Of a stretch of 64,000 bases of DNA, positions 936-56,781 are shown piece by piece; position 1 is the first letter of the stretch; each line of letters begins with the position of its first letter. The position numbers and the translations under genes are program-made. The stretch spans positions 186,001 through 250,000 of the forward strand of contig NW_027590197.1 of the NCBI RefSeq assembly GCF_964213995.1, read 5' to 3'. The notes beneath the pieces were generated by a model. The model was not told where the DNA came from and ran no database searches. It worked only from the letters and a program-made list of their open reading frames with translations. Source of the stretch: Mustelus asterias. Lineage: Eukaryota.

Positions 936-1964
936 ATGCTGAAGGTCCACCGTCAATAACTCCAGGAGCCTAGTGCACCAAACTGGGATGGCACTGTGCT
1001 CTGAGCACGCTCAGTGAGGTTGGTGGAGGTGGACTGAGGAGGAACAGGTGGCTCAGATAGTAGGAGCAGATTTTGGTGCAGGGGAGGAATTGGAGCTGTG
1101 GGTCGGCTGGGAAGCTTCAGAAACACGTGATGTATGGAACTCGCAATAAGAATATCAAATTCCTGAGTTTACAGCGCTGGGGCTTTATGGGGACAGGCCC
1201 AGGTTAACAGTTACCATCCTAGTTTGATGACTGGCAGAGCGCATGCACAACTTTCTTGGTGTGGGAGTAGAGAGTGGGTGGGACTTCATGGTCCCAGTGA
1301 TCGGAGAGATAATTATTCACTCATTGATTTTATTCTCATTCTTCACTCAGCAGCTGGAGAATTGAACCCAGGCAGAATAAAGGAAAGGAGAAAACTGGGA
1401 GGAGAAAGGAAATGATGGAGATTGCACTGAAATCCAGTGAATCACATTGGGAGGAGGGACAGTTTGTGGAATGTGATTTACTTTGTGAGTTGTGTCAGCA
1501 ACTTGGAGAACAAGAGAGGAAAAAATATTCCAAAGAAACTAGAGTTGTCAGTTTTGGATTTATGCCTGCACTTTCAGTGAATCATTTGTGTAATGTCCTT
1601 TTACAGGGCATTCACACTGGAGAATTTTCAGACAGGAAATCCAAACCAAACATCACATTGAGATCTGACAGAGTCACTCGATTCATTAGGACCTGAATAT
1701 CTTCGGCCTTTGAATATGGATGGAGAAATGTTTTTCTGTTCTATCTGTGGGAAAAGATTTCAAACATCAGTGTGACTGGAAAAGCACCGACACAGACACA
1801 CCCGAGTGAGAGTGTTCCAGTGAACTGACTGTGAAAAGAGCTTTAACCAGTTACACAGCCTGAAAAAAAATCACACCATTCACAGCGAGGAGAAACGATA
1901 CATGTGTTCTGTGTGTGGATGAGGCCTCAGCTGATCATCCAACCTGGAGAGACACCAGGGCACC

Positions 1965-2723
1965 ATGGAGAAACCGTGGAAATGTGGGGACTGTGGGAAG
2001 GGGTTTAGTTGTCCATCCCACCTAGAAACTCATCGACGCAGTCACACTGGGGAGAGGCCATTCATCTGCTCCAACTGTGGGAAGGGATTCACTCAGCCAT
2101 CCAGCCTTGTGTCACACCAACGAATTCACACTGAGGAGAAACCTTTCAAATGCTTTGACTGTGGGAAAAGCTTTAGGAGCTCTGGGTGTTTAATTCAACA
2201 TCAGGGACTTCACACAGGAGAGAGACCGTTCATCTGCTCCATGTGTGGGAAGAGATTTGCGTCTTCATCGCAACATTCAAAACACCTCCGAGTGCACACG
2301 GGGGAAAGACCATTCACCTGTTCTGAGTGTGGGAAGAGATTCAGGTGTTCATCCAACTTCACTGAACATCTCCGTGTGCACACAGGAGAGAGACCATTCA
2401 CATGCTCTGAGTGTGGGAAGGGATTCACTTGTTCATCCCACCTTGCTGAACACAATCGTGTTCACAGTGGAGAGAAACCATTTGTCTGTTCCACGTGTGG
2501 GAAAGGATTCACTACGTCATCCCAGCATCTGACACACCAGCAGGTTCACACTGGGGAGAGACCGTTCAGCTGCTCCACGTGTGGGAAGAAATTTAGTCGT
2601 TCATCCACCCTGCAGAGACACCAGCGGGTTCACACTGGGGAGAGACCGTTCTCCTGCTCCGAGTGTGGGAAGGGACTCACTCAGTCATCCCACCTGCTGA
2701 GACATCAGCAAATTCACAAGTGA
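1965..2723 (+). CDS. C2H2 zinc-finger protein, 9 tandem fingers (unit 1)
   Basis: Open ORF with 9 CxxC-x12-HxxxH repeats and TGERP linkers; ATG in Kozak context cACCATGG; decayed linker and fingers upstream (~1607-1960). Confidence 0.85.
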
Positions 2724-2756
2724 TTACAGGGGTTGGATTCTGCTGTTAGTCACCAG

Positions 2757-3615
2757 TAAGAGACACTCTAACTACCGGCCCTTGACATTCAATGGTGTTA
2801 CCATCACTGATTTCCTCACTGTCAACATCCTTGGGGTTACCATTGACCAGAAACTCGCCACATAAACACAATGACTACAAGAGCAGGTCAGAAGCGAGTA
2901 ACTCACCTCCTGACTCCCCAAAGCCTGTCCACCATCTACAAGTCAGGAGTGTGATGGAATGCTCCCCACTTGCCTGTATGGGTGCAGCTCCAACAACACT
3001 CAAGAAGCTCGACACCATCCAGGACAAAGCAGCCCGCTTGATTGGCACCACATCTACCAACATCCACTCTCTCCACCACTGACACTCAGTAGCAGCAGTG
3101 TGTACTATCTACAAGATGCACTGCAGCAATTCACCAAAGATCCTTCGACAGCACCTTCAAAACCCACGACTACTTCCATCTAGAAGGACAAGGGCAGCAG
3201 ATGCATGGGAACACCCCCACCTGCAAGTTCCCCTCCCAGTCACTCACCATCCTGACTTGGAAATATAATCGCCGTTCCTTCGCAGTCACTGGGTCAAAAC
3301 CGTGGAATTCCCTCCATAACGGCATTGTGGGTCAACCCACAATAGGTGGATTGGCTATGCTAAATCACCCCTTAGTGTCAGGGGGATTAGCAGGGTTATG
3401 GGAATAGGGCCTGGGTGGGATTGTTGTTGGAACAGACACGATGGGCCGAATGGACGCCTTCTGTATTGTAGGAATTCTATGATTCTATGAATCCATAGCA
3501 TGTGGACTACAGTGATTCAAGAAGGCAGCGCAGCTCCACCTTCTCAAGGCAAATACGAATTGGGCAATAAATGCTGCCCAGCCAGTGATGCCCATGTGCC
3601 ACGAATGAATTTTAA
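2757..3615 (+). mobile_element. Non-LTR retrotransposon (CR1/L2-group) 3' fragment interrupted by a SINE piece at ~3343-3488
   Basis: Translates to QVRSVMECSPLACMGAAPTTLKKLDTIQDKAARLIG, typical of post-RT LINE ORF2. Confidence 0.65.
3343..3488 (+). mobile_element. HE1-like SINE, 3' half
   Basis: ggattggctatgctaaat...gggcctgggtgggattg...gggccgaatgg...gattctatga matches the 3' half of the full copy at 38225-38564. Confidence 0.7.
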
Positions 3616-3779
3616 AAATCAGACCCAGGACTGAACTATGTTCAATCTGACTGAATTCTGAGTTTCTGAACATTGGGTTTGGTGTCCAATGAATCACTTT
3701 TGTTTCCATCATTTTATCCCAACTCCTTGATTTCTCCAAGATGAGAGGAGACTAATTCATCTCCTGTTACTGGGATAGA

Positions 3780-5699: not shown

Positions 5700-6003
5700 C
5701 ATAGAATCCTACAGAGCAGAAGAAGCCCATTCAGCCCATCGAGTCTGCACTGACCACAATCCCGCACTGACCACAATCCCACCCAGACCCTATCCCCGTA
5801 ACCCCATGCATTTACCCTAGCTAGTTCCCCTGGCAATTTTTAGCATAGCCAATCCACCTAACCCGCACATCTTTGGATTGTGGAAGGAAACCCATGCAGA
5901 TACGGGGAGAATGTACAGACTCCACACAGATCGTGACCCAAGCCGGGAATCGAACCCGGTTCCCTGGCGCTGTGAGACAGCAGTGCTAGCCACCCTGCCG
6001 CCC
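5700..6003 (-). mobile_element. HE1-like tRNA-derived SINE
   Basis: Reverse complement of the 38225-38564 element, including B-box GGTTCGATTCC. Confidence 0.8.
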
Positions 6004-6719: not shown

Positions 6720-7030
6720 ACAGACCTTGCGCATGCGTACTGTAGATCCAAAGTGCATGCGCAGTGGATGTTGCTCCCGCAGTAGCAGGAGGGCGGTTAT
6801 ATCGGCTCCGGGTTTCCAGGGAAACGGCTTATTATGGAGGGTAATGCAGGCGGCGGGGTGGATGGGGAGACTTCATAAGCACCCAGTGGAGACAGGAGAA
6901 CCCGAATAATAACTGCTCAGTGCCGCGTTCCAACCATTCGGGGCCGCGACCGCAGATGCCGAGTTGGAGGCCCCGAGTTGACGGAGGCCATCTTTCTCGG
7001 GGCGATGGGCAATAGTGCGCATGCGCGGTT
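6720..7030. promoter_or_regulatory. CpG-rich promoter-like cassette
   Basis: TGCGCATGCGTA (~6728), GTGCATGCGCA (~6752), GCCATCTTT (~6987), TGCGCATGCGCG (~7016); locally CpG-rich. Confidence 0.55.
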
Positions 7031-7039: not shown

Positions 7040-7350
7040 AGCAGGAGGAGAGAATGTTGTGAATTTCTCTCCTGGACTGACAGGGATGGACTTTGGAAAC
7101 TCCTTTTACAGGGAGTTAGAAGGGGAGGATTTACACACAGAAAACTCAACCCAAGAGAAATGTTTCTCACTTAATTTCTATTCTTGACTGACAGTGATGA
7201 TCTTTTTTTACAGGAAATTTGACGACAAAATTTGAAGGGAAACTCAAACCAGACATCAGATCAAAACCTGCCAGAGTCACTCCATTCATCAGAACCTGAT
7301 TGTAAGTGTGTCTGTAGAAAAAGATTCAAACATCTGTGTGACTGGAAATA
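7040..7350 (+). pseudogene. Orphan ZNF-cassette 5' part (two acceptor blocks and decayed linker, no finger array)
   Basis: ctccttttacagg...ggatttacacacagaaaactcaa, then ttttacagg...aactcaaaccagacatca...gtgtgactggaa, homologous to the start of units 1, 9 and 10, then truncated. Confidence 0.55.
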
Positions 7351-8391: not shown

Positions 8392-8690
8392 AAGTTTATT
8401 TATTAGTTACAAGTAGGCTTACATTCAGACTGCGATGAAGGTCCTGTGAAAATCCCCTCGTCGCCACACTCTAGCACCTGTTCAGAGGGAGAATTGAGGG
8501 AGAATTTTAGCATGGCCAATTAACCTAACCTGCACATCTTTGGAGTGTGGGAGGAAACCGGAGCACCCGGAAGAAACCCACGCAGACACAGGGAGAACAT
8601 GCAAACTCCACACAGACAGTGAGCCAAGCCGGGAATCGAATCTGGGTCCCTGGTGCTGTGAGGCAGCAGTGCTAACCACTGTGCCACCAT
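8392..8690 (-). mobile_element. tRNA-derived SINE (HE1-related head)
   Basis: Minus strand GGTGGCACAGTGGTTAGCACTGCTGCCTCACAGC...TTCGATTCCCGG. Confidence 0.75.
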
Positions 8691-10560: not shown

Positions 10561-11336
10561 CCAACTGGTACAAAGTTACTAAAAAGGTATGGAAATGGGC
10601 AGACCAGGCATGGGCCTTGACACGGGAAACGGCCTTGTCGACCCTGCAAAGTCAGATTTAGAAAATAAATATTTGAAGCTGGTTGTAAACAGCCTGCTTC
10701 AGCACCAGAGTGGGATGCTGTCAGTGTCCACGGGGTGGAGTTTGTAGCACGGACTGAAGACAATCGTTTCATGTTTCTCACTCTTTAAATGGAGGAAACT
10801 TCTCCGAATCCAGGACAGGATCTCAGTCCAGTCGCGATGCTGTGTGACTTTGAGGTGATGATGTTCACATTCACCTGTGAACCTGGTCTTTCTAAATGGT
10901 GGAGGTTGAGGGTTTGGGAGTTTCTATCTGGTTGTAGATGTATCCACTCCTTCACCTCTTCTCCTCCCACATCTCTTAATCCCGCCCATCCGCTGCCTCT
11001 TCACATTGAAGCTCTGGTCTTGTATAGGTTCAGACTGGCTCAAAGGTTCCCTTCCCTGAAGGACATTAGTGAACCAGTTGGGTTTTTATGACAATCCATC
11101 AGTTTTCTTGGTCTCTTTTTCCCAGTGCCGGCCCCACAAATTACCAGATTCATTCAGCTCCATTTCACAACCTGCCTTGGTGATTTTGTGGGTTTTCTCT
11201 CACTCTCTTTTCTTTTTTAAATCAATTTCACAGCATATTCAAAGGTGAGGATTTGCAGTCAGAAAACTGAAACCAAACATCACATCAGGATCAGACAGAG
11301 TCGCCCAATTTATCGTAATATGCGTATCATTGGATT

Positions 11337-12188
11337 TTGAACATGGAAGGAAAAAGCACCGCTCACAGTGGGGAGAAACTGTACACGTGTTCCGTGTGTG
11401 GACGAGGATTCAGCCGTTTATCTGGCCTGTCAAAACATAAATGCAGTCACGGTGGGGAGAAATTGTGGAAATGTGAGTGTTGTGGCAAGGGATTCAGTTC
11501 CCCATCAGAGCTGGAAATTCATCGACGGTGTCACACTGGGGAGAGACCGTTCACCTGCTCCGAGTGTGGGAAAGGATTCACTCAGTTGTCCCACCTGGTG
11601 AGACACCAGCGAATTCACACTGGGGAGAGACCTTTCACCTGCTCTGTGTGCAAGGTGGGATTCACTCAGTCAGCCCACCTGGTGTCACACCAGCGAGTTC
11701 ACACGGGAGAGAGACCATTCACCTGCTCCGAGTGCAAAATGGGATTCACTCAGTCAACCCACCTGGTGACACACCAGCGAGTTCACACTGGGGAGAGACC
11801 ATTCACCTGCTCCGAGTGTGGGAAGAAATTCAGCCGGTCGTTTCACCTTCTGATTCACCAGCGAATTCACTCTGGAGAGAGACCATTCACCTGCTCTGAG
11901 TGTGAGAAGGCATTCATTACATCAACAGAACTGTTGACACACCAGCGGATTCACACTGAGGATAACCCGTTCACCTGCTCCAAATGTGGGAAGGAATTCG
12001 CTAACTCTTCGAACCTGATCTGCCATCAACGGATTCACACTGACGAGAGACCCTTTAAATGCCCAGACTGTGGAAAGTGCTTTAAAAGTTTTGGGAACTT
12101 GATGACCCATCAACGGGTTCACACTCGAGTCCGTTCAGATGCTTTCACTGTGGGACTGAGTTCAGACAATCATCTCCTCTCACTGTAA
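11337..12188 (+). CDS. C2H2 zinc-finger protein, 9 fingers, frameshifted decayed fingers downstream to ~12280 (unit 2)
   Basis: ORF track; likely start ATG GAA GGA at 11343; further finger sequence continues out of frame. Confidence 0.8.
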
Positions 12189-15390: not shown

Positions 15391-16029
15391 TAAAATCGGG
15401 GAGGTGGTGGTAATATCAGTGACACAGCCTCATGTTCTGGGGATGGGTTCAAGTCCCATCATGGAGCTGGGGGGGTTTAAATAGAATTCACAAAACGCTG
15501 GAAAATCTGGAATATAATTTCACTTGAGTAACCATTACAGCTGTGAACAATTTTAAAAACCCATCCTGTTTATTCATGGGAATCTGCTGTCTCTCCATAG
15601 ACTTGTCAACATGCGATTCAGTCTCTAACTGCCCTCCTCAGGGGCAGGAAATAAATGCTGGTCTTGGCAATAAAACCACATCACATGAAATAGTGAAGGA
15701 GAAACACTGATAGACTTGGGTTAATGGATGTCATCTTTCTCGGGAGCAGGACACAGGCACGGTTATCACTGTCCCTGTGAGAAAATGTGAATTTCTATCC
15801 TGGACTGACATTGATAGATTTTGGAGTCTCCTTTTCCAGAGGGTGAGAAGGGGAGGATTTACACACAGTAAACTCAAACCAAGTTTGCTTCAATTTTTAA
15901 CTTTGGACTTTTTCTTACAGGATATTAGAAGCGCAGGAGTGGAAGGGAGAAAACTCAAACCAAACATCGCATCAGGATCCGACGCTATCGCCTAAATTAG
16001 TGTAATCTGAATATCATTGGGTTTTGAAC

Positions 16030-18496
16030 ATGGAAGGGGAAAGCACGGTTAACAGTGGAGAGAAACTGTACACGTGTTCTGTGTGTGGACGAACATTCAG
16101 CCGATCATCTGGCCTGTTGAAACATAAATGCAGTCACAACAGGGAGAAACAATGGAAATGTGGAGACTGTGGGAAGAGATTCAGATTTCCATCTGAACTG
16201 AAAACTCATCGACACAATCACACTGGAGAGAGACGACACAAAACTGGCAGGACTTGCAGATAGTGAGGAACATTGTCAGAGGCTACAGAAGGATATAGAT
16301 AGGCTGGAAATTTGGGCAAGGAAATGGCAGATGGAGTTCAATCCTGATAAATGAGAAGTGATGCATTTTGGTGGGAATAATGTAGGGAGGAGCTACACGA
16401 TAAATGGAAGAACCATAAAGGGTGTAGAGTCGCAGAGGGACCTGGGTGTGCAAGTCCACAGATCTTTGAAGGTGACGTCACAGGTGGAGAAGGTGGTGAA
16501 GAAGGCATATGGCATGCTTGCCTTTATAGGAGGGGGCATAGAGTATAAGAGTTGGGGTCTGATGTTGCAGATGTATAGAACGTTGGTTCGGCCGCATTTG
16601 GAATACTGCGTCCAGTTCTGGTCGCCACACTACCAGAAGGACGTGGAGGCTTTGGAGAGAGTACAGAGGAGGTTTACCAGGATGTTGCCTGGTATGGAGG
16701 GGCTTGGTTATGAGGAGAGATTGGGGAAACTGGGGTTGTTCTCCTTGGAAAGACGGAGGATGAGGGGAGACTTAATAGAGGTGTATAAAATTATGAAAGG
16801 CATAGATAGGGTGAACGGTGGGAAGCTTTTCCCCGGGTCGGTGGTGACGTTCACGAGGGGTCATAGGTTCAAGGTGAAGGGGGGGAGGTTTAACACAGAT
16901 ATCAGAAGGACATATTTCACACAGAGGGTCGTGGGGGCCTGGAATGTGTTGCCGGGCAAGGTGGTGAAGGCGGACACACTGGGAACGTTTAAGACTTATC
17001 TAGACAGCTATATGAACGGAGTGGGAATGGAGGGATACAAAAGAGTGGTCTAGTTTGGACCAGGGAGCGGCGCGGGCTAATTGTTCCTTGTTTCTCGTTT
17101 CAAGGCTTCATTCTATGATCATCTTGCTGGTGCCAGTACAGAGCGAGACTGCGGATAGTTGGGAACCTGTCTCGGGGGCAGGGAATTCATATGGTGTTTG
17201 TGGAAGTGGAAATGACTAGGGTTGGGAAGCATTTTCCGATCAGGGCCATTGTGATCTCCTGGACTCGTTTCGATCGCCTCAGGGGGTCGGAGAGGAATTT
17301 CCCAGATTCTTTTTCCCCATATTGGCCCTGGGGTTTTCACTCTGGGTTTTCGCCTCTCCCTGGAGATCACATGGTCTGGAATGGGGGGGTGGGGGTGAGT
17401 TAATAGGTTGTGATGAACAAAGCATCGTAGCTGTGAGGGACAGCTCGGTGGATAGGATATTGGTATGTAGATAGGCTGGAAAATTGGCCGGGGATCCTGG
17501 ATTCAGGATTCAATCCTGGACCGGGGAGCGGCGCGGGCTTGGAGGGCCGAAGGGCCTGTTCCTGTGCTGTATTGTTCTTTGTTCTTGAGACCATTCACCT
17601 GCTCTGAGTGTGGGAAGGGATTCACTACCTCATCCATCTTGCTGACACACCGGCGAGTTCACACTGGGGAGAGACCGTTCACCTGCTCCAAGTGTGGGAT
17701 GGGATTCATTTGTTCATCGCATCTGCTGAAACACTGGTGGGTTCACACTGGGGAGAGGCCATTCAACTGTCATGAGTGTGGGAAGGGATTCGCTACCTCA
17801 TCAATCCTGCTGACACACCAGAGAGTTCACACTAGAGAGAGACCATTCAGATGCTCTGATTGTGGGAAGGGATTCCCTACCTCTTCTATCCTGCTGAAAC
17901 ACCAGCGAGTTCACACTGGAGAGAGCCCGTTCACCTGCTCTGAGTGTGGAAAGGGATTCACTGATTCATCCGACCTGCTGAAACACCAGAGAATTCATAA
18001 TGGGGAGAGGCCATTTATCTGCTCCGAATGTGGAAAGGGATTTACCCAGTCATTCAACCTCCTAAAACACCAGCGAGGTCACACCGGAGAGAAGCCGTTC
18101 ACCTGCTCTGAGTGTGGGAAGGGCTTCAGTCAGTCATTCATCTTGTTGAAACACCAGCGAGTTCACACTGGGGAGAGGCCATTCACTTGCTCCAGTTGTG
18201 GGAAGGGATTTATTGATTCATCCACCCTGCAGAGACACCAGCGAGTTCACACCGGGGAGAGACCATTCACCTGCTCTGATTGTGGTAAGAGATTCAGTCA
18301 ATCATCCAACCTGGTAAAGCACCAGCGAATTCACACTGGGGACAAGCCATTCACCTGCTCCGTGTGTGGGAAGGGATTCACTCAGTCACCTCACTTGCTG
18401 AAACACCAGCGTGTTCACGAGCGACTGCAAGGACTGGATTTTGCTCTTAATCACATCAAGGTCCTGACTATTTTCATTGGTGTCTGTTTCTGCTGA
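16030..18496 (+). pseudogene. C2H2 zinc-finger gene (2+10 fingers) disrupted by a CR1 insertion (unit 3)
   Basis: Removing 16235-17591 (element plus one GAGAC copy) restores CAC ACT GGA GAG AGA CCA TTC (HTGERPF) in frame. Confidence 0.85.
16235..17586 (+). mobile_element. 5'-truncated CR1/HER1 LINE inserted in a ZNF exon
   Basis: Starts at the DTK of the RT; ORF 16358-17053 (RPHLEYCVQFWSP...FTQRVV); tail gggccgaagggcctgtt...gttctt; GAGAC at 16230-16234 and 17587-17591. Confidence 0.9.
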
Positions 18497-18872: not shown

Positions 18873-19060
18873 GGGAGGCACGGTAGCACAGTGGTTAGCA
18901 CTGCTGCTTCACAGCGCCAGGGACCCAGATTTGATTGCCGGCTTGGGTCACTGTCTGTGTGGAGTTTGCACATTCTCCCCGTGTCTGCGTGGGTTTCCTC
19001 CAGGTGCTCCGGTTTCCTCCCACATTCTGAAAGACGTGCTGGTTAGACGCATTGACCCGA
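18873..19060 (+). mobile_element. HE1-like SINE 5' part
   Basis: ggcacggtagcacagtggttagcactgctgcttcacagc head. Confidence 0.8.
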
Positions 19061-20401: not shown

Positions 20402-20455
20402 GGTTCCAGATGAGCTGAGACTGGGCTGGAGTCGGGCGATGGCACTGACATGTGG

Positions 20456-24047: not shown

Positions 24048-24954
24048 ATTGACAGATCCATGCTCACTGCTTCTTGCCCTGGATGCAGAGAGCTGAAAAT
24101 TTCCATGCAGGCTGCCAGACAAATAAATGTCTACATTACTGGAGTAAAAATGTGTGGAATATACAGACCGAATTCACTTCATTCCCTTCAGTTGCTGCAA
24201 GTCCCCAATTTCCCCAGAATGAGAAAAGAAATGGAAAGGGGGAAACATTGATTTCCTCCCAGATGTTGTCCAGAAGAGGAAGTTTCAATCTGAAGCTCAT
24301 TGGACAACTTCCGCATTGTGACGTCACAATGGAGCCTGCCTGAATCAGCGAATAGGAATCTCTCTTCCTACATCAAGAGCTGATGTTTCTTGTCTCGATG
24401 ACCCTTTGTCAAAGCTCTGAAACATCAGTTCTTTTCTCTCCATCCAGATGCTGCCAGACCTGCTGAGAATGGGGAGAGAGTGTGTGGGATGGAGATTTAC
24501 AGCTTTTGGGGAATGAGAGAGGAAAGAATGTTCCATAGAAATTGTCTGTTCTGAATTTCTATGCTGTACTGACACTGATGACTTTTGTAAACTCGTTTTA
24601 CAGGATATTGAAAGAGGAATCACAGGCCGAAATCTCGAACGTCATGTCTAGACGTGACAGAGTCATATTCCTTGGGACCTCAATATCATCGGACTTTGAA
24701 TCCAGAAGGAGAAATGATTGTCCAGTCTGTCGATTTGAAAAGATTTGAAATGTCAGTGTGAGTGAAAAAGCATCAACACACTGCCACACTTGAATGAGAG
24801 TGTTCCAATGCACTGACTAAAGAGCTTTAACCAGTTACACAGTCTGAATAAATATCACACCATTCACAGCGGGGAGAGACTGTAATCTTGTTCTGAGTGT
24901 GGGCGAAGTTTCAACTAATTGTCCAGTCAAGAGAGAGGTAAGGACACCTGCACC

Positions 24955-25881
24955 ATGGATAAACCATGGAAATGTGGGGACTGTGGGAAGGGATACAGAG
25001 CCCCATCTAAGCTGGAAGCTCATCGACGTAGCCACACTGGGGAGAGACCATTCACCTGCTCTCAATGTGGGAAGGGATTCACTCGATTATCCCTCCTGCA
25101 GAGACACCAGCGAGTTCACACTGGAGAGAGGCCATTTTCCTGCTCTCAATGTGAGAAGGGATTCAGTCAGTTATCCGACCTGCAGAGACACCAGCGAGTT
25201 CACACTGGGGAGAGGCCGTTCACCTGCTCTCAGTGTGGGAAGGGATTCACTCAATTATCCACCCTGCGGACACATGAACGAGTTCACACTGGGGAGAGGC
25301 CATTCACCTGCTCTCAGTGTGGGAAAGGATTCATTCTGTTATCCAGCCTGCGGATACACCAGCGAGTTCACACTGGGGAGAAACCATTCACCTGCTCTCA
25401 GTGTGGGAAGAGATTCACTCAGTCAGCCGACCTGCAGAGACACCAGCTACGTCACACAAGGGAGAGGCCGTTCACCTGCTCTCAGTGTGGGAAGGGATTC
25501 ATTCTGTTATCCAGCCTGCGAATACACCAGCGAGTTCACACTGGGGAGAAACCATTCATCTGCTCTCAGTGTGGGAAGGGATTCACTAACTCATCTGATC
25601 TGCGGACACACCAGCGAGTTCACACAGGGGAGAGGCCGTTCACCTGCTCTCAGTGTGGGAAGGGATTCACTCAGTCATCCCACCTGCAGAGACACCAGCG
25701 AGTTCACACTGGGGAGAGACCATTCAACTGTTCTCAGTGTGGGAAGGGATTCACTCAGTCATCCAACTTGCAGACACACCAGCGAGTTCACACTGGGGAG
25801 AGGCCATTCACCTGCTCTCAGTGTGGGAAGGGATTCAGAGTTTCATCCCACCTGCTGAGACACCAGCGAGTTCACGAGTGA
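24955..25881 (+). CDS. C2H2 zinc-finger protein, 11 fingers (unit 4)
   Basis: ORF 24919-25881; Kozak ATG cACCATGG at 24955; highly homogeneous CSQCGKGF fingers. Confidence 0.85.
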
Positions 25882-34896: not shown

Positions 34897-35766
34897 TTAC
34901 TTGTGGCCTCGCTGGTGTCTCAGCAGATGGGATGACTGAGTGAATCCCCTCCCACACACAGAGCAGGAGAACGGTTTCTCCCCGGTGTGAATGCGCCGGT
35001 GTTTCAGCAGATTGGATGAGTGATTGAATCCCTTCCCGCACTCAGAGCAGGTGAGCGGCCTCTCCCCAGTGTGAATTCTCTGGTGTACAGTGAGCTGAGA
35101 TGATTTCCTGAATCCAGTCCCACAGTGAGAGCATCTGAACGGTCTCTCGTCAGTGTGAATACGTTGATGGGTCACCAGTTCCCCAGAACTTTTAAAGCAC
35201 TTCCCACAATCCAGGCATTTAAATGGTCTCTCGTCAGCGTGAACCCGTTGATGGGATGTCAGCTCCACAGAACTTTTAAAGCACTTCTCACAGTTCAGGC
35301 ATTTAAAAGGTCTCTCATCAGTGTGAACTCGCTGATGTTTCAGTCGGTGAGATGACTGAGTGAATCCCTTCCCACACACAGAGCAGGTGAATGGCCTTTC
35401 CCCAGTGTGACCATGTTGGTGTCCTAACAGATTGGATAACTGAGTGAATCCCTTCCCACACTCAGAACATGTGAATGGTCTCTCCCCATTGTGATCTCGC
35501 TGGTGTTTTAGCAGACTGGATGACTGAGTGAATCCCTTCCCACACTGAGGGCAGGTGAATGGTCTCTCCCCAGTGTGACTGCGTCGATGAGTTTCCAGGT
35601 CAGATGGATAACTAAACGCTTTCCCACAATCCCCACATTTCCACAGCTTCTCCCCAGTGTGACTGTGCTTGTGTCTCGACAGGCCAGATGATCAACTGAA
35701 GCCTCGTCCACACACACAACACGTGTATGGTTTCTCCTCACTGTGAACAGTGCTTTTTCCTTCCAT
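34897..35766 (-). pseudogene. C2H2 zinc-finger gene, 10 fingers, in-frame TGA in finger 1 (unit 5)
   Basis: ATG GAA GGA AAA AGC at 35766; in-frame TGA at 35694-35692; frame otherwise open to the stop at 34897. Confidence 0.75.
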
Positions 35767-36939
35767 GTTTAATATTCAATGATATTCAGGTTACGATAAA
35801 TTGTACACCTCTGTCAGCTCCTGGTGTGATGTTTGGTTTCAGTTTCCTGACTGTAAATCCTCCTCTTCAAAAACCCTGTGAAATTGATTTAAAACAAAAA
35901 AACAGGAGTGAGAGAGAACCCACAAAAACACAAAGGCAGCTTGTGAAATTGAGCTGAATGAATCTGGTCATTTGTCTGATACTAATGAACAGTGCTGGAT
36001 TATCATAAAAACCCAACTGATTCACTAATGTCCATCAGGGAAAGGAACCTACCACCCAGTTTGGGGTCTGTACAGACTCAGGCCTCTACTTAAGGAGAGT
36101 ACAAGACAGTGGGAGAGAATGGGGAGTAATGCAAGAGGTGAGGTTGTGGGGGGGGTGGGGGAGGTGCTGGTGATGGCAGGAGGAGAGGGATTTTACACAT
36201 CTATAACTCAGCTGGAGCTTTGACAGAATCTCCCAAACCCTCAACTTCCACCACCTGGAAGGACCAGGATCACAAGTGTGAATGAACACCTCTAAATTCA
36301 CCTTCAAGTCTCACACACTGGGGGATTTTCACAGTAACTTCATCGCAGTGTTAATATAAACCTACTCGTGACATGAATAAATAAACTTTTTTAAAAAGCG
36401 TTAAACACACTGTCCTGACTTGTCTGCCATCCAGTGCTGGATGAACAGATATTTTATATATTGGGAAGACTGAAGCCACTGGTTTCAGTCTTTGCTACAA
36501 ACTTCACTCCCCAGCCACCGACTCCATCTCTCTCCCTGATAATTGTCCAAGGCTGAACATGATTGTTCACAGCCATGGTGACATGTTTCACCTCAGGAAT
36601 TAGGAGTCGGCCATTCGGTCCGTCAGGTCTTTCACTTCAGTCACTGTTTCAAGTCTGGATGACCCTTCTCCAAACAGTCATTCAGACTCGGAACGTTGGC
36701 TCTATTCTCTCTCCAAAGATGCTGTCAGACATGCTGAGATTTTCCAGCACTTTCTGTTTTTTGTTAAACATTCACTTGATTGCAGTTTGCTGTGGGTAAA
36801 TCCTCCCCTTCTAACCCATGTAAAATAAGTTTCCAAAACCCATCACTCTCAGTCCAGGATAGAAATTCACAACATTGTGTCTGCCTGCTTTCCGGCTCAG
36901 GATTACTTAAGCTGGGACACATTTTCATTGGAAGCAGAT

Positions 36940-38950: not shown

Positions 38951-39463
38951 TTACCTGTTCAATAACTGGGGAATCTTGTGAACTCGCTGGTGTCTCATTA
39001 GGTTTTGTGACTGTTTGAATCCCTTCCCACACACGGAGCAGGTGAATGGCCTCTCCCCGGTGTGAACTCGCTGGTGTGTCAGGAGATCAGATGAGTTAGT
39101 GAATCCCTTCCCACACACGGAGCAGGTGAAAGGCCTTTCCCCAGTGTGAGCACGCTTGTGTTTCAGCAGGTGAGATGAACTGCTGAATCCCTTCATACAC
39201 ACAGAGCAGGTGAATGGCCGCTCCCCAGTGTGAAGTCGCTGGTGAGTGCGAAGGTTGAACATTCGACTAAAACTCTTCCCACACGCGGTGCAGATGAACA
39301 GACTCTTCCCAGTGTGATTGCGCTGATGTGCTTCCAGCTGGGATGGAGAACTGAATTCCTTCCCACAGTCCCCACATTCCCATGGGTTCTCTATGGTGTA
39401 GATGTCCTTGTGTTTCTCCAGGTTGGATGATTTAATGTGTGTATATTTCAAATATCCTGTCAA
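38951..39463 (-). pseudogene. C2H2 zinc-finger array, 5 fingers, linker deleted and conserved start ATG changed to ATA (unit 6)
   Basis: Open frame, but the paralogous ACC ATG GAG reads ACC ATA GAG (~39390); acceptor block directly upstream. Confidence 0.6.
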
Positions 39464-40830: not shown

Positions 40831-41159
40831 GATCACCATCTGTTTTTTATGTTTGCATTATTTAGTTTATAAAAACAATGGCATCATCCAGCCAATAAAA
40901 ACATGATAATACATATCTGGACAAGTTGTTCCAATTGACTACAACATTGTGGTGCTAATTATGTATACAGCCATGAACAGAACTGGGCCAGCTGGCATTT
41001 CCAATGCAAATTGTCATGTAATTGCAACATGGAAGATGTCTAAAATTGAATTTGCAAAGTAATGACAGCATTGTTATTCATAGTATGAATATGGAAAATA
41101 AAAGACCTGTTTCAGCAAACCTTCAGGTGAGGTAATTTAGGAAGTGCTAATCACCATCT

Positions 41160-42200
41160 TTGGAAGGAAGGATTTGCAGTTGGAAAACTCAAACTAAACA
41201 TCACATCAGAATCTGATGGAGTCACTCAATTTATCCAAATCTGAAATCATTGGGTTGTAAATGTGGAAGGAGAAAGTACCATTCACAGTGGGGAGAAACC
41301 GTCCGTGTGTTGTGTGTGTGGATGAGGCTTCATCTGATTGTGGAACCTGGAGAGACACAGGACACCCACAGCATGAAGAAACTGTGGAAATGTGAGGCCT
41401 GTGGGAAGGGATTCAGTTACTCAGTTATACTGGAAACTCATCAGTGCGTTCACACTGGGGAGAGGCCATTTACCTGCACCGAGTGTGGGAAGAGCTTCGC
41501 AAATTCAACCAACCTGCTGAGACACCAGCTCGTTCACACTGGGGAGAGGCCGTTCACTTGCACTGAATGAGGGAAGGGATTCACTCATTCATCATATCTG
41601 TTGAGACACCAACCAGTTCACACTGCAGAGAGACCTTTTAAATGCATGGACTGTGTGAAGTGCTGCAAAACCTCTGGGAACTGAAGCACCATCAGCATGT
41701 TTCACACTGGGGAGAGGCCGTTCAGGTGCTCTCACTGTGGGACTGGGTTCACACAATCATCTGACCTCACTGTACACCAGCGGATTCACACTGGGGAGAG
41801 GCCGTTCACCTGTAAAGAGTGTGGGAAGGGATTTGCTCAGATGTCCACTCTGCTGACACACCAGTGGATTCACACTGGAAAGGGACCATTCACCTGCCCT
41901 GAGTGTGGAAAGAGATTCATTAATTCATCCCACCTGCTAACGCACCAGCAGATCCACACTGATGAGACTGAACTGCGGAAAGTGCAACAAAAGTTCTGGG
42001 GAACTGCTGTCCCATCAATGAGTCCACACTGACGAGAGACAATTCAAGTGTTGTCATTTTGGTCTGAGTTCAGGTAACCTCATCCCACTGTACACCAGTG
42101 CATTGACACTGAGGAGAGAATGTTCACTCCCTCTGAATGTGGGAAGAGAGTCACTCATTCGTCCCATCCGCTGAGATCCAGTGATTTCAGAAATAACTAC
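41160..42200 (+). pseudogene. C2H2 zinc-finger pseudogene (unit 7)
   Basis: Finger repeats broken by TGA stops (~41568, ~41682) and frameshifts. Confidence 0.8.
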
Positions 42201-46424: not shown

Positions 46425-47294
46425 TTACTTGTGAACTCGCTGGTGCCTCAGCAGTGTGGATGAACGACTGAATCTCTTTCCACACACTGAGCAAGGAAAT
46501 GGCCTCTCCCCGGTGTGAACTCGCTGGTGTGTCAGCAGGGTGGACAACTGAGTGAATCCCTTCCCACACACTGAGCAGGTGAACGGCCTCTCCCCAGTGT
46601 GACTCCGCTGGTGATTAAGTAGGTTGGACATCCAAGTGAAGCCTTTCCCACAGAAAAAGCAGGTGAAGGGTCTCTCCCTGGTGTGAGTGAGTTGGTGCAT
46701 CAGCAGATCCGTCTGGCTTTTAAAGTACTTCTCACAGTCAGGACATTTAAACAGCCTCTTATCAGTATGAACAAGTTGGTGTGTCAGTAGGTCGAATGAA
46801 CGGGTAAATCCCTTCCCACACACGGAGCAGGGGAACAGTCTCTCCCCAGTGTGAGTGCGTTTATGGTTCAACAGATCATTTTTCCTTTTATAGTTTTTCT
46901 CACAGTCAGAACATTGGAAAGGTCTCTCCTCACTGTGGATTCGATGGTGTGACAGGAGGTGGGATGAGTTTGTGAAGTCTTTCCCACAGACGGAGCAGGT
47001 GAATGGTCTCTCCCCAGTGTGAACACGCCGGTGTCTTAGAAGGTGGGATGATTTAGTGAATTCTTTCTGACGCACAGAGCAAGTGAATGGCCTCTCCCCA
47101 GTGTGACTGCGGTGATGAATATGTAACTCAGATGGGCAATCAAATCCCTTCCCACAGTCTCCACATTTCCACGGTTTCTCCCCAGTGGGACAGCACTTGT
47201 GTTTTGACAGGTTTGATGAGCGACTGAAACCTCGTCCACACACAGAACATGTAAACACCTTCTCCCCATTGTGAACGGTGCTTTTTGATTCCAT
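46425..47294 (-). CDS. C2H2 zinc-finger protein, 10 fingers, one degenerate (CSVR) (unit 8)
   Basis: Open ORF from ATG GAA TCA AAA AGC. Confidence 0.85.
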
Positions 47295-47824
47295 GTTCAG
47301 AAGTCGATGATGTTCAGGCCCTGATGATTTGGGTGTCTGTCAGATCCTGATGTGATGTTTGATCTGAGTTTCCCACCTACAAATCCTCCTCTTCCAATAT
47401 GCTGTAAAATTAATTCAAAAAGGAGAAAAAAACAGTGATAAACACAAAGGTAGGTTGTGAAATTCAGCTGAATGAATCCGGTAATTTGTGGAGCCGGCAC
47501 AAGGAAAAAGTGACTCCGGAAGCTGCTGGATTGTGATTAAAAACTCAAATGGTTTGCTAATGTCCTTCAATTCAGGAAACCTGCCACCCAGTCCAGATCT
47601 ACACAAGAATTCAACCTTAATGGGAGGAGAAAGATAGAGATGAAACAGGGAGGGAATGAACGGTAAGGACTTTATACATCTACAACTGGCCAAGAACTTT
47701 GACAGAACCTGCCAAACCACAACCTTCACCAACTCAAAGGATGCAGGAAAACTATCACCTCCAAATGTCGCTTTCAATCTCAAAACAACTTGTAATCCTG
47801 AGGTAACCTGTAACCTCCTGCATT

Positions 47825-48015
47825 TAAGGGGCAATTTAGCCTGGTCAATCCACCTAACCTGCCCACCTTTGGGGTGTGGGAGGAAACCGGAGCACCTAAA
47901 GGAAACTCATGCAGTCACAGATATAACGTGCAAACTCCACACAGTCACCCAAAGCTGGAATTGAACCCGGGTCCCTGGTGCTGTGAAACAGCAGTGTTGA
48001 CCACTGTGCCACCCT
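47825..48015 (-). mobile_element. HE1-like SINE 5' part
   Basis: Reverse complement of ggtggcacagtggtcaacactgctg...gggttcaattcc. Confidence 0.7.
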
Positions 48016-48889
48016 GTGCCACTGTACTATATTGCTCAGAAATAAGTTTTAGGATTTTGGCCGAGTGATTGTGAAGGCAGAGCAGTAAACTACCAAGTCA
48101 CAATAGTGTGTGATTCTGAAGAGTAAATGCAGGTAGTGGGGTTTCCATGCACAAACTGCCCTAATCCATATTGGAGAAGAGGTTTGTAGTTTTGGAAGCT
48201 GCTGTCAAAGGAGTTTTAGCCAATTGCTGGTAATTCCAGTAATGTCCATGTTCCAGTTATTAATTTGAAAATTTTCTAAATGAAAATTTAATGAAAATCC
48301 CTGACAGAACTACTTTTTCCTTACTTGAAACACAGCTTTAAATGGTCCGTTTGTTTCTAGATTCAGTTCCATGAGCAACGCCTTCAACTAAACAAAATCA
48401 AAACACTGCAGCTGCTGGAAATCTGAAATGAAAAGAGAAAACGTTGGAAATACTCATCAGCATCTATAGAGACAGAAATAGAGTTAATGTTTGCAGTCAC
48501 TGATGCTCCTCTAATAAAACACATACCAATAGCTGCTGTTTAATGGGGCCGTGGATCGCACAATCCCCTGTGCCCCAGAAACAGCTCTATCCATCACACA
48601 CATTTCCCATTATGACACTTCTATGTCAAGAGGGCGAGCTGTTTAAAAGTCGTCAAGTTCCATTTTTGCGTGTTGATGTTCATTAAAGATACGGATCGAC
48701 TTCCCCCTCATTATGTATCAATTTCAGATACTTTGGTCGAGAATTTCCATTCCCCTACTTCCTGGTGGATAATGGATGCCTTGAGCACTTCGATTACAGT
48801 ACATTTGATTCCTAATTTTATTAACTGCACCCCATCCCTAATTTTCACATCGCAGCAGAAAAAGCTACTGTTCACAAATGAGGAGTTTC

Positions 48890-49320
48890 GATGGCGTGCG
48901 TTTTACCCACCATTCCTCGCGGTGGGGAATGTCCCCTATCCACAGCACGGGAGAGTTGTGCATGCGCAGTGAAGCAGTGTTTGACGCGTGCGTAGCGTGG
49001 ACAATGGCAATGGAGAGGGACGTTCCTCTGTCTCATCAACAACCGGTAAGGATGCGGATACATGGAGGGAGGATTGGAACCAGCAGATGGACGGAGAGGG
49101 TTTCTAAATATCTGGTGAAGGTCTCAAACCTCTAATAGTAATCCGCAGGTCCCGTGTTTGCAGCTTCAGGTCTTTTTCCCGAGACGAGGCGAGGTTAACA
49201 GCCGCCATCTTGATTCAGCAGGGAGCGGAGCGCATGCGCTGGTGTCTTGGTGACGCAACAGAGAGTGGGTGGGGCTTAGGCATTTTCTGCTCCCAACCGG
49301 GTCCGAGTGACCGGAATGCA
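48890..49320. promoter_or_regulatory. CpG-rich promoter-like cassette between unit 8 (-) and unit 9 (+)
   Basis: GTGCATGCGCA (~48958), GCCGCCATCTTG (49201-49212), AGCGCATGCGCT (49229-49240). Confidence 0.55.
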
Positions 49321-53230: not shown

Positions 53231-53874
53231 CTGTAGAGACTGTCTGGCAGCCTGCATGGAGATTTTCAGCTCTCTGTGTCCAGGACAGGAAGCAGTGAGC
53301 ATGGATCTGTCAATCAGCCTCAATCAGCACCTTCAGGAGAATTGGGAGGGTGAATATTAGATACAGCAGAGTGAGAATGGAGGGAGAGTGTGTGGGATGG
53401 AGATTCACAGCTTTGGGGGAATGAGAGAGGAAAGAATGTTCCATAGAAACTAGAATTCTCTGTTCTGAATTTCGATCCTGTACTGACTGTGATGACTTTT
53501 GTAAACTCCTTTTACAGGATATCAGAAGGTGAGGGTTTACAGACAGAAATCTCAAACCAAACGTCACGTCAACATCTGACAGAGTCACTCAATTCAATGG
53601 GACCTGAATATCATCAGCCTTTGAATCTAGGAGAAATGTTTTTCTGTTCTGTCTGCTTCAGGAGATTTTAAATATCAGTGTGACTGGAAAAGCACCGAGA
53701 CACACACACCCGGGTGAGAGTGTTCCAGTGCACTGAGTGTGGAAAACGCTTCAGTTGCACAGCCTGAAAAAACATCACAACATTCACAGTGGGGAGAGAC
53801 TGTACCCGTGTTCTGTGTGTGGACGAGGCTTCAACTGATTGTCCGACCTGGAGAGTCACAAGGACACCTGCACC

Positions 53875-54465
53875 ATGGAGAAACGGTGGAAATGTGGGGA
53901 CTGTGGGAAGGGATTTAGATACCCTTCTCACCTGGAAACTCATCGACGCAGCCACACTGGGGAGAGACCGTTCACCTGTTCTCAGTGTGGGAATGGATTC
54001 AGTCGATTATCCACCCTGCAGACACACCAGAGAGTTCACAATGAGGAAAGGCCATTCATCTGCTTTCATTGTGGGAAGAGATTCACTCAGTCATCCAGCC
54101 TGCAGACACACCAGCGAGTTCACAATGAGGAGAGACCGTTCATCTGCTCTCAGTGTGGGAAGGGATTCAGTCAGTCATCCAGCCTGCGGACACACCAGCG
54201 AGTTCACACTAGGGAGAGGCCGTTCACCTGCTTTCAGTGTGGGAATGGGTTCACTCAGTTATCCCATCTGAAGACACACCAACGGTTTCACACTGGGGAG
54301 AGGCCGTTCACCTGCCCTCAGTGCGAGAAGGGATTTGCTCAGTTATCCACTCTTCAGACACACCAGCGAGTTCACACCAAGGAGAGACCGTTCACCTGCT
54401 CTCAGTGTGGGAAAGGATTCACTCAGTTATCCGACCTGCGGAGACACCAGCGAGTTCACATGTGA
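53875..54465 (+). CDS. C2H2 zinc-finger protein, 7 fingers (unit 9, close paralog of unit 4)
   Basis: ORF 53839-54465, Kozak ATG at 53875; 3' flank very similar to that of unit 4. Confidence 0.85.
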
Positions 54466-54689
54466 TTCCAGGGGTTGGATTCTGCTGTTATTGTTTCTGC
54501 TCTCAATTACATCCAGGACTGCATTTTGTTCATTCTCACAGTTGGTCAATGGGGAGGGTCGGAGGGTTTCTTTCTGCTGGACTGGCCGGTCTCACCACTT
54601 TGCCTCCAGTGGCTGATAATCTTTTAACCTTGTTTTGAATATCTGGCTTTGGATTTCTCAAGGATCACAGAGTGAAAGGGTGTTTGGAA

Positions 54690-54925
54690 GTTTAAAGATA
54701 TTTTGTTCACAATACTGTTTGGAAGGCTCGCAAAGCACGCAGAGGGAGTAGTGAGCATGAGGAACTGAAAGAGATTAGTATTCGTGAAAAAGTAGCACTG
54801 GAGAAATTAATGGAGTTGGAAGTGAATAAATCCCCAAAAAGCTGATGATCGACATCCCAGAGTGTTGGAAGAGGTGGCTGTGGAGATAGTGGATACATTG
54901 GTGGTCATCTTTCCAAATTCTATAG
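54690..54925 (+). mobile_element. Degenerate CR1 fragment
   Basis: LEKLMELEVNKSP..D..HPRVL.EVA.EIVD.L..IF motif. Confidence 0.6.
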
Positions 54926-54930
54926 GTTGT

Positions 54931-55110
54931 GTCTTGCAGAGGTTGCTGTGGCAGGGTTGTGTGGTGTCATGGTCACTGTTCTCCTGAAGGCTGGGTAGTT
55001 TGCTGCGGACAATGGTCTGTTTGAGGTTGTGCGGTTGTTTGAAGGCAAGAAGTGGGGGTGTGGGGATGGCCTTGGCGAGATGTTTGTCTTCATCAATGAC
55101 ATGTCATTGA
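54931..55110 (-). mobile_element. Internal Penelope-like fragment
   Basis: Nearly identical to ~21448-21620. Confidence 0.85.
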
Positions 55111-55701
55111 TCAGAACTGAATCCAGACAGAGGGAGGGAGGGAGAAAACTGGGAATGGAGGAAAAGAATGTTGGAGATGATGAGATGGGTTTGGATTTCA
55201 GCCCAGGGAGGAGGGAGAGTGTGTGGGACGGGGATTTACAGGTTTGGGGGAACAAGCGGAAAAAATGTTCCAGAGAAACTAGAATTGTCTGTTCAGAATT
55301 TCTATCCTGGACTGACAGTAGTTTTGTTATCTTCTTTTGCAGGATATTTGAAGGGGAAGATTTACAGACTGGAAACTCAAATCAAATTTCATACGAATAT
55401 TTTACAATCATTCGATTTATCAGCACCTAAACTCAATTAGCCTTTGAATGTGGAAGGAAAAATGTTTGTTCTGCCTGTGGGAAAATATTTCAAACATCAG
55501 TGTGACTGGAGAAGCATCGAGACACATGCACACACTGGAGTGAGACTGTTCCAGTGAACTGACTGTGGAAAGAGCTTTACCCAGTTACGCAGCCTGAAAA
55601 ACATCACACCATTCACTGTCGGGTGAAACCACACACGTGTTCTGTGTGGACAAGGATTTAACAGATCATCCAACCTGGAGCGACACAAAGACACCAGCAC
55701 C

Positions 55702-56781
55702 ATGGAGAAACTGTGGAAATGTGAAGATTGTGGAAAAGTTTGTAAAACCCCATCTCAGCTGGAAATTCATCGACGCAGTCACACTGGGGAGAGACCATTC
55801 ATCTGCTGTATGTGTGGTAAAGGATTCGCTCAGTCATTTAGCCTGGTGTCACACCAGCGAGTTCACACTGAGGACAGACCGTTTAAATGCTCTGACTGTG
55901 GGAACAGTTTTAAGAGTTCTGAGGGTTTAATTCACCATCAACGGGTTCACACTGGCGAGAGACCATTCAATTGCTCTCAATGTGGGAAGAACTTCAGGCA
56001 AGTATCTCACCTCACTGAACACCTACGTGTTCACACTGGGGAGAAACCCTTCACCTGCTCCATGTGTGGGAAGGGATTCACTTGTGCTTCCCACCTCACT
56101 GAACACAAGCGTGTTCACACTGGGGAGAGACCATTCAGCTGCTCTCAGTGTGGGAAACATTTCAGGCAGTATTCCACCCTCACTGAACACAAGCGTGTTC
56201 ACACTGGGGAGAGACCGTTTGTTTGCTCCTTTTGTGGGAAAGGATTTGTTAAATCATCCCATCTTCTTAGACACCAGCGCATCCACACTGGAGAGAGACC
56301 ATTCACCTGCGCTGAGTGTGGGAAGGGATTCACTACAACATCTCACCTCAGTGAACACCAGAGTCTTCACACTGGGGAGAAACCTTTCACCTGCTCCCTG
56401 TGTGGCAAGGGATTCACATGTTTATCCTACCTCAGAAGACACAAAATTGTTCACTCCGATGAGAGACCCTGTAAATGTTCTGACTGTGGGAAGAGGTTTA
56501 AAAGCAGAAATGAACTGATGAAACACCAGCCTCTTCACACAGGGGAGAGGCCGTTTGCTTGCTCTGTGTGTGGGAAGGGATTCACTCAGTCATCACAGCT
56601 CAGCAACCATCAGCTTGTTCATACTGATAAGAGACTGTTTAAATGCTCTGACTGTGGAAAGAGCTTTAAAAGTGCAGGGAATCTGCAGAGACACCAAACC
56701 ACTCCCACTGAGAGGGGCTGTTCAGCTGCTCTTCATCTGGGAACTGATTTACTACTTCATCCCAAATCACTGATCACCTGA
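55702..56781 (+). CDS. C2H2 zinc-finger protein, 11 intact fingers plus one incomplete; decayed fingers continue to ~57170 (unit 10)
   Basis: ORF track; Kozak cACCATGG; finger series related to unit 1. Confidence 0.85.
   Translation: MEKLWKCEDCGKVCKTPSQLEIHRRSHTGERPFICCMCGKGFAQSFSLVSHQRVHTEDRPFKCSDCGNSFKSSEGLIHHQRVHTGERPFNCSQCGKNFRQVSHLTEHLRVHTGEKPFTCSMCGKGFTCASHLTEHKRVHTGERPFSCSQCGKHFRQYSTLTEHKRVHTGERPFVCSFCGKGFVKSSHLLRHQRIHTGERPFTCAECGKGFTTTSHLSEHQSLHTGEKPFTCSLCGKGFTCLSYLRRHKIVHSDERPCKCSDCGKRFKSRNELMKHQPLHTGERPFACSVCGKGFTQSSQLSNHQLVHTDKRLFKCSDCGKSFKSAGNLQRHQTTPTERGCSAALHLGTDLLLHPKSLIT

Follow-up and report, generated by a model that had tools for sequence, protein, structure and literature searches.

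The origin of KRAB zinc-finger genes has been placed in Osteichthyes, with only PRDM9 reported in the whale shark (PMC11603059), and a second study describes KRAB-box families as missing from cartilaginous fishes (PMC8455134). A third study counted zinc-finger open reading frames (ORFs) in these animals, namely 3586 in Scyliorhinus canicula, 1851 in Carcharodon and 1223 in Amblyraja (supplement of PMC10547256). Given that cartilaginous fishes are reported to be without KRAB zinc-finger (ZNF) genes, the mode of action of their ZNF proteins matters. Here we describe a tandem cluster of C2H2 zinc-finger genes (11 units and one fragment) in 64,000 nucleotides (nt) of Mustelus asterias (RefSeq assembly GCF_964213995.1, contig NW_027590197.1, positions 186,001 to 250,000 of the forward strand). 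This whole stretch is called the window, and positions are counted from its first letter. In one class of units the start codon appears to lie inside a finger linker, with the fingers before it left as fossil untranslated sequence.

In themselves the genes are tandem C2H2 genes of an ordinary, ZNF-only type, and their starts are already found in the automated NCBI annotation. The window was scanned in six frames for tandem C2H2 arrays, and hits were obtained on both strands. The arrays are of the Kruppel type, with C-x2-C-x12-H-x3-H fingers and TGEKP-type linkers; helix positions -1, 3, 5 and 6 are the most variable across fingers (about 3 bits), which fits sequence-specific DNA binding by the arrays. 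From the predicted start onwards the units encode fingers alone, with no recognised effector domain. All units open with homologous sequence, a pyrimidine-rich acceptor followed by about 109 nt of spacer, but the AG is lost in unit 7 and most of the leader in unit 6. In class A (units 1, 4, 9 and 10, pseudogene 11 and the deleted unit 6) the spacer is followed by three dead fingers and then by a Met that occupies the Gly position of TGEKP. Class B (units 2, 3, 5 and 8), in which two of these three dead fingers are absent, has its start, AAC ATG GAA, behind the spacer and retains the following finger along with a normal linker. A first-pass annotation of the window had already placed this start one finger earlier than in class A, as we also find, though units 3 and 5 are broken, as are units 7 and 11.

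Units 1, 4, 9 and 10 start at GCACCATGGA, with Met in place of the TGEKP Gly (contexts GGCACCATGGAGA at 1965, TGCACCATGGATA at 24955, TGCACCATGGAGA at 53875 and AGCACCATGGAGA at 55702), while unit 7 carries CACAGCATGAAGA at 41373 and, on the reverse strand, ATA stands at 39394 in unit 6. All four ATGs, the AGCATGA of unit 7 and the ATA of unit 6 lie where the first-pass annotation had located them. It had also put the start where a linker is expected, which is right for the Met at the linker Gly and wrong for the CAC of the motif: the frame is xGC ACC ATG, and this CAC is not the linker His codon. Alignment sets H-K-D-T-(C/S)-T-M-E-K-x-W-K-C in class A against H-K-C-S-H-T-G-E-K-x-W-K-C in class B, and the change probably went from Gly to Met, since HTGEKP is the general linker. 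Downstream, the four class A frames are open for 252, 308, 196 and 359 codons and hold 9, 11, 7 and 11 canonical fingers, in agreement with the open arrays described earlier; in units 4 and 9 the linker ATG is the only Met before the array. The Kozak context had been taken as a sign of a re-set start, a use that we reject. The strong context (A at -3, G at +4) arises because the linker codons for Thr (ACN) and Glu (GAN) supply both letters to any Gly-to-Met change, and ACC is present in 9 of 78 ordinary linkers. As a separate observation, the ATA of unit 6 (39394, -), the GTG of unit 11 (60787, -) and the Thr found at this site in shark models P0037, P0047, P0074 and P0118 are near-cognate start candidates in strong context; the Thr codon is possibly ACG, and all variants are one step from ATG.

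The leader of units 1, 4, 9 and 10 covers 351-359 nt upstream of the ATG within the same putative exon. Decayed fingers had been claimed for this part of the exon, and three of them are indeed present behind the 37-codon spacer. Over the 119 upstream codons, 15 projected stops occupy 9 distinct sites (5, 4, 3 and 3 in units 1, 4, 9 and 10), accompanied by about 9 frameshifting indels, none of which is in unit 1. Readthrough or selenocysteine insertion at the five TGA codons of unit 1 was considered and rejected, as units 4, 9 and 10 show TAA, TAG and frameshifts there.

Downstream openness holds partly by definition, and the codon-position test is therefore the real control. Upstream, variable columns are spread evenly over the three codon positions (41/41/42 of 102 codons, p=0.9), whereas they are skewed in the first two fingers (12/21/33 of 61, p=5e-4) and in the seven fingers downstream (60/78/119 of 194, p=4e-9). 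The ratio of nonsynonymous to synonymous substitution (dN/dS; NG86 omega) is 0.63 upstream, where a column-shuffle null has a mean of 0.73 and 28% of 300 shuffles are as low, and 0.30 in the first two fingers, where the null is 0.85 and 0 of 300 shuffles are as low. Identity of the upstream exon part (0.71-0.82) is no higher than that of the adjacent intron (0.71-0.93). One finger belongs to the coding part in class B and to the leader in class A, and so serves as an internal control: its codons with amino-acid changes and those with synonymous differences only stand at 19:1 in class A and at 12:10 in units 2, 3 and 8 (p=0.004 against class A), or 17:7 with unit 5 (p=0.054). The decay ends four codons before the first finger of the open array, hereafter the cap finger. 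Its CGA Arg codon is intact in 4/4 class A genes and is TGA only in pseudogene unit 11, and one finger further upstream the corresponding CpG-bearing Arg codon has become a stop in units 1, 4, 5, 7, 9 and 11.

Run on the paralogs, the comparison of dN/dS and of stops and indels across the ATG thus finds constraint downstream only. The earlier statement that selection acts only beyond the ATG stands in so far as upstream coding constraint is lost and is kept after the start; it needs amending at the other end, where the arrays are bounded too, for units 2 and 10 carry decayed fingers past their stops and the arrays are therefore trimmed on both sides. Trees built from blocks of 70-112 nt had mostly weak support, and we claim no order of events from them. 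The only firm groupings are a clade of class B first fingers (99) and units 4 and 9 in the spacer (95); on the first of these groupings, class B is taken as a sister form and is not shown to be ancestral.

Among named records, the nearest relatives of the distinctive parts come without exception from sharks (Heterodontus, Mustelus, Scyliorhinus, Cetorhinus, Carcharodon and Pristiophorus), and none of six predicted window proteins has an exact match in the protein collection (0/6). Three Heterodontus (horn shark) models begin at MEKxWKC, which makes the start an old family trait. In 28 cap-finger contexts from 17 named shark models, the start position is occupied by Met in 11, Gly in 7, Thr in 4 and other residues in 6. 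Heterodontus, a member of Galeomorphii, has both starts, and in Pristiophorus, a member of Squalomorphii, the class A leader ends at the same site; the class A leader was therefore probably dead before these groups split. The split of Galeomorphii and Squalomorphii dates to more than 200 million years ago. That the dead fingers can still be read is due in part to the low mutation rates of sharks, reported as 7e-10 per base per generation (PMC10587355).

In class A the cap finger begins four codons after the ATG. It has a Trp before its first Cys, Pro at helix position +1 and Glu at +5, and a normal TGERP linker connects it to the array. Within the window, Pro+1 is present in 9/10 copies and Glu+5 in 8/10, compared with about 1 and 0 of the 73 other fingers; in named shark copies the counts are 21/21 and 20/21, and both residues are almost absent from the other fingers of those proteins. 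Among 39 runs of at least three fingers in named chondrichthyan models, 26, among them one from an Amblyraja and one from a Narcine model, have exactly one Pro+1/Glu+5 finger, which is the first in 20 and the second in 6, and never lies deeper. The combination was found in 2 of 2373 fingers from 110 named non-chondrichthyan proteins. The frequency in sharks is inflated, because these proteins were retrieved by a query containing the cap finger; its position at the head is unaffected. As a conserved N-terminal finger with atypical helix residues, it resembles the protein-binding N-terminal fingers of the CLAMP kind. A search of the PDB with the cap finger gave generic C2H2 matches only, and a homodimer prediction for the unit 1 cap finger (34 amino acids, two copies) scored 0.12 against a mark of 0.32, a value which we do not use as evidence either way.

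The first-pass annotation had proposed finger-only proteins acting as competitors or steric repressors, in which case the cap finger would be an ordinary first finger that caps the array or touches the DNA backbone. Such proteins would be in keeping with the absence of KRAB and SCAN hits from the window and from 60 shark-type proteins, with good-scoring Pfam matches of the unit 1 and unit 2 proteins to zinc-finger families alone, with the variation of cap-finger positions -1, 3 and 6 among paralogs, and with a cap-to-cap identity in the window (0.60) that exceeds other-to-other identity (0.49) only modestly. Against this, the signature residues are held in sharks, skate and ray, once per array and at its head, and leader decay halts just short of the finger that carries them. 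Because a conserved atypical finger heads every array, the absence of an effector is not established, and we regard bare competitors as a rather unlikely, though the strongest, alternative. Somewhat less doubtful, and offered tentatively by analogy, is that the cap finger is a conserved, probably non-base-reading module for cofactor binding, which would make these proteins compact repressors; the remaining probability falls to other roles.

Several points weigh against the account of a moved start. Met is common and not fixed at the site, as seen from 4 Thr against 11 Met in the shark models and from ATA in unit 6 and GTG in unit 11, and the database starts are automated annotations. The four class A paralogs are non-independent, and their downstream fingers may be shuffled and not strictly orthologous; the contrast between leader and coding sequence (CDS) is weak in class B, with few units (p=0.2-0.3). 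Two database proteins show Trp at the leader stop that is otherwise shared, eight class B models have a spacer open into the first finger, and in some fused Heterodontus models the splice junction falls in the last dead finger, immediately ahead of the Met. That the cap finger is conserved does not reveal what it binds. Finally, the linker ATG is not the first AUG of the exon, being preceded by 5, 5, 2 and 3 upstream ATGs (uATGs) in units 1, 4, 9 and 10, one of which, in unit 1, has a strong context; such uATGs could suppress translation. The Met position, the loss of coding signal upstream, the purifying signal downstream, the presence of the start in other sharks and the cap finger at the head of each array are nonetheless direct observations, and we consider a moved start with a fossil 5' untranslated region (UTR) to be highly probable.

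With two to five uATGs ahead of the linker ATG, translation needs leaky scanning or reinitiation. One alternative reading is that the leader is retained as a regulatory element, with conserved upstream ORFs (uORFs) that end at a shared stop and tune translation of the array. One uATG in GAAATG/AAAATG context is common to 4/4 class A units, its uORFs end 144-203 nt before the main ATG, and the Met and stop are also present in Pristiophorus P0133. However, uORF frames and lengths vary among units, unit 6 and class B are without this segment, and a retained uATG and TGA are not striking because about 60% of leader columns are invariant anyway. A regulatory leader is accordingly judged improbable.

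Less probable still is an in-frame splice from a coding exon further upstream that bypasses the decayed part, which would make the linker ATG an internal Met. Putative YAG acceptors lie at 1606 (unit 1), 24603 (unit 4), 53517 (unit 9) and 55342 (unit 10), and their use is supported because three annotated shark models join other exons there in the same phase. The last in-frame leader stop lies 10, 12, 12 and 25 codons 5' of the ATG in these units, and no good acceptor is found between it and the ATG in class A (pyrimidine fraction at most 0.5; unit 9 has no YAG at all). The sole unit to which an upstream coding exon could be joined in frame is unit 6, open from its acceptor through 5 fingers; some automated models do attach other exons just before the Met, and the window may not contain every first exon. 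These attached exons vary from case to case, and we read such fused models as probable annotation artefacts.

A shared upstream coding exon was sought with a profile of the spacer. A word search returned 8 proteins, all from sharks, and a full HMMER scan returned 42, of which 39 were judged real; with P0133 and P0136 added, and P0161, P0171 and P0172 dropped as low-complexity repeats, the set comprises 41 proteins, whose taxonomic range rests on named records. Their N-terminal parts are heterogeneous (translated intron, repeats, histone) and unrelated, except for translations of the intron and promoter region; no shared N-terminal domain was seen, and none of the 41 runs through the dead fingers into the cap finger and array. 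In four of the 41, including one that belongs to the squalomorph Pristiophorus, the protein stops at the same FQTSV site. Hidden Markov models built from 70 named KRAB proteins and 17 SCAN proteins gave best scores of -3.1 (true domains at least 22) and -1.1 (true domains at least 86) in six frames of the window, its introns included, with no hit of either in the 60 shark-type proteins. KRAB was not among the best 5 families in a Pfam scan of 40 spacer-bearing proteins, and BTB did not occur among the Pfam labels of the shark matches, the window introns not having been scanned for it. An ancestral N-terminus that decayed had been assumed at the outset, but there is no sign that the upstream sequence ever included an effector exon. 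The idea that a histone exon was the lost N-terminus was rejected, since the two Pristiophorus models that join a histone to the spacer do so in opposite orders and the fusion is absent from the rest of the 41. These fusions in Pristiophorus japonicus (P0133 and P0136, H2A-like and H2B-like) are read as neighbouring genes joined by annotation or read-through, which suggests that histone genes lie among these ZNF genes in its genome.

Equally improbable are class A units that are young pseudogenes or untranslated RNAs, open through recent copying of working genes and with an incidental ATG, for although 4 of 11 units are clearly broken, one lacks the ATG, uATGs precede the start and unit 10 has no promoter-like element of its own, the paralogs are 20-30% diverged and keep 1115 codons without an internal stop next to 119 with many, show the purifying codon signal downstream only, and share their start with Heterodontus.

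As a whole, the explanation that we favour, with more reserve than the moved start itself, is an old elasmobranch family of tandem C2H2 genes in which the entire protein would be encoded in one last exon and the cap finger would act as a cofactor module. The ancestral exon would have held spacer, fingers and the distinctive cap finger. In class A, Met would have arisen at the Gly of the linker preceding the cap finger, turning all 5' sequence into 5' UTR; in class B the start would lie one finger earlier, with the spacer alone as leader. The N-terminus may thus have been shortened stepwise down to the cap finger, the linker ATG rescuing the array once stops struck the preceding finger. Unit 5, with a stop and no rescue ATG, and unit 7, with both, resemble neighbouring states, whose order we leave unclaimed. 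A non-coding first exon would be transcribed from a CpG-rich promoter and spliced to the acceptor, and ribosomes would pass or translate the short uORFs and then initiate or reinitiate at the linker ATG. The predicted product is a cap finger followed by 6-10 variable fingers, which would bind DNA, probably of mobile elements as in other vertebrate ZNF expansions (PMC10547256). It can be speculated further, though we hold this to be doubtful, that elasmobranchs without KRAB or FiNZ turned one finger into a corepressor module and shed what lay upstream stepwise through a linker start, and that the leader with its uORFs and the ATG/ACG/GTG/ATA variants sets the dose of each paralog.

Table 1. Features of the zinc-finger cluster, with positions in the window (aa, amino acids).
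Feature	Position	Strand	Description
Promoter-like element 5' of unit 1	250..281	+	GCCATCTT and GCGCATGCGC in a CpG-rich stretch; putative function
Unit 1 fossil leader	1607..1964	+	37-codon spacer and three dead fingers, in frame with CDS; five TGA
Unit 1 uORF	1716..1775	+	19 aa; strong context AATATGG; stops at TGA common to four class A units
Unit 1 CDS	1965..2723	+	Class A; 252 aa; 9 fingers; N-terminus MEKPWKC
Unit 1 cap finger	1977..2045	+	Trp, Pro+1, Glu+5
Truncated unit	7112..7350	+	Doubled acceptor and spacer, piece of first dead finger, array absent
Unit 2 spacer (leader)	11234..11342	+	Two in-frame stops
Unit 2 CDS	11343..12188	+	Class B; 281 aa; 9 fingers; N-terminus MEGKST
Unit 2 cap finger	11466-11534	+	Second in array
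Unit 2 fingers after stop	to about 12290	+	Frameshifted
Unit 3	15921..18496	+	Class B; ATG 16030
Unit 3 insertion	16234-17586	+	Multi-copy repeat splitting the array; 10 fingers stranded downstream
Unit 4 fossil leader	24604..24954	+	Four projected stops, three frameshifts, five uATGs
Unit 4 CDS	24955..25881	+	308 aa; 11 fingers; single Met; cap finger 24967-25035
Unit 5	34897..35875	-	Class B; ATG 35766; TGA 35694-35692 in first finger
Unit 6	38951..39456	-	Leader mostly deleted; ATA at 39394; 5 fingers; frame open from acceptor
Unit 7	41152..42050	+	Mosaic: class B spacer, class A start at 41373; frameshifts
Unit 8	46425..47401	-	Class B; ATG 47294; 289 aa; 8 canonical fingers
Promoter-like element 5' of units 9 and 10	49202..49239	+
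Unit 9 fossil leader	53518..53874	+	Three projected stops, one frameshift, two uATGs
Unit 9 CDS	53875..54465	+	196 aa; 7 fingers; cap finger 53887-53955
Unit 10 fossil leader	55343..55701	+	Three projected stops, about five frameshifts, three uATGs
Unit 10 CDS	55702..56781	+	359 aa; 11 canonical fingers; cap finger 55714-55782
Unit 10 fingers past stop	to about 57150	+	Decayed
Unit 11	60030..61131	-	Class A pseudogene; GTG at start site (60787); doubled cap finger; TGA in first copy; frameshifts

In unit 5 the TGA lies 24 codons past the ATG and is followed by 9 open fingers with no later Met; these fingers (34897-35691, -) may represent a recent pseudogene, or may be reached by readthrough or from a non-AUG start. 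Unit 7 has lost its acceptor (AG) and meets a stop at 41568-41570, after 65 codons. Its spacer is closer to class B (identity 0.70-0.75) than to class A (0.59-0.68), and its first finger resembles class A at its end, with the ATG present. Units 4 (24955-25881) and 9 (53875-54465) contain internally repeated fingers (LSSI twice; QSST twice) and have intron and 3' UTR sequence in common, which are signs of recent finger duplication and of common descent.

CpG-rich promoter-like elements occur at 250-281, 6987-7026 and 49202-49239, and looser ones near 15180, 19800-20000, 40380-40600 and 63100-63400. The motifs in the first of these are presumably YY1 and NRF1 sites. Two promoter-like blocks, nearly identical and each with two CCAAT boxes and a GC box, are located at 19440-19990 (5' of unit 4) and 40000-40600 (between the divergent units 6 and 7). 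A second, promoter-proximal acceptor with the first 45-60 nt of the spacer was observed at 7080-7215 (+), 15780-15920 (+), 36790-36905 (-) and 42890-43010 (+), and the same doubling is present in Cetorhinus model P0134; this copy may be a small non-coding exon. The unit 10 exon starts about 880 nt past the unit 9 stop (54465-55343, +) with no promoter-like element between them, and may be an alternative last exon of the unit 9 transcript.

Mobile elements are also present. The multi-copy insert of unit 3 sits in the linker directly after its cap finger, and we take it to be the 3' end of a CR1-type long interspersed nuclear element. Copies of a tRNA-like short interspersed nuclear element, which we assume to be of the shark HE1 type, were located at 5830-6000, 8500-8690, 18880-19060, 20450-20640, 38230-38560 and 47820-48020; a tRNA scan of the window with ARAGORN returned 0 genes. 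A retroelement-like, CpG-rich element forms a long inverted duplication near 22030 (21000-23450) inside the probable unit 4 intron, and is presumably Penelope-like.

The window supplies the gene anatomy of this family, a diagnostic motif for its genome-wide collection and one candidate effector of 23 residues. We contend that it also offers a clear natural example of coding sequence turned into 5' UTR by a new start within a repeat, the steps of which are visible side by side as intact class B, a stop without rescue (unit 5), a mosaic (unit 7) and class A. Caution is required with automated models, which splice or fuse through these leaders. A literature search, with most subscription papers outside its reach, returned no paper describing a family-wide linker start, a fossil leader or a cap finger.

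Among known systems, KRAB-ZNF genes of sarcopterygians are similar in their tandem clusters, in a single last exon with a spacer followed by TGEKP-linked fingers, in the birth and death of copies and in variable base-contact residues; here, in contrast, KRAB was not found, the spacer does not code for protein and translation starts within the finger exon. The FiNZ-ZNF genes of cyprinids, as described by Wells et al. 2023 (PMC10547256), are likewise a lineage-specific ZNF expansion marked by a short conserved N-terminal element, and the corepressor route is still open in both. FiNZ is, however, an acidic domain of 28 amino acids with its own upstream exon, whereas the element described here is a C2H2 finger that shares the exon of the array, and exons further upstream appear to be non-coding. 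A conserved atypical N-terminal finger also heads the DNA-binding array in Drosophila CLAMP (10.1101/2022.02.16.480628) and in proteins with dimerising CGx-phi fingers (PMC12774644). The analogy with the CLAMP finger slightly favours a cofactor role for the cap finger, although those insect fingers have measured partners and the likeness is one of role, known here from sequence. ZNF-only genes of mammals, with their reported loss of effectors, are polydactyl without KRAB, SCAN or BTB, and fingers and domains were lost by degeneration (PMC2443715; PMC3971581); the terms 'start codon' and 'UTR' are absent from the main text of the former. As far as these accounts describe them, the mammalian losses took place gene by gene, whereas the linker start of the shark genes would be the founding trait of a large subfamily.

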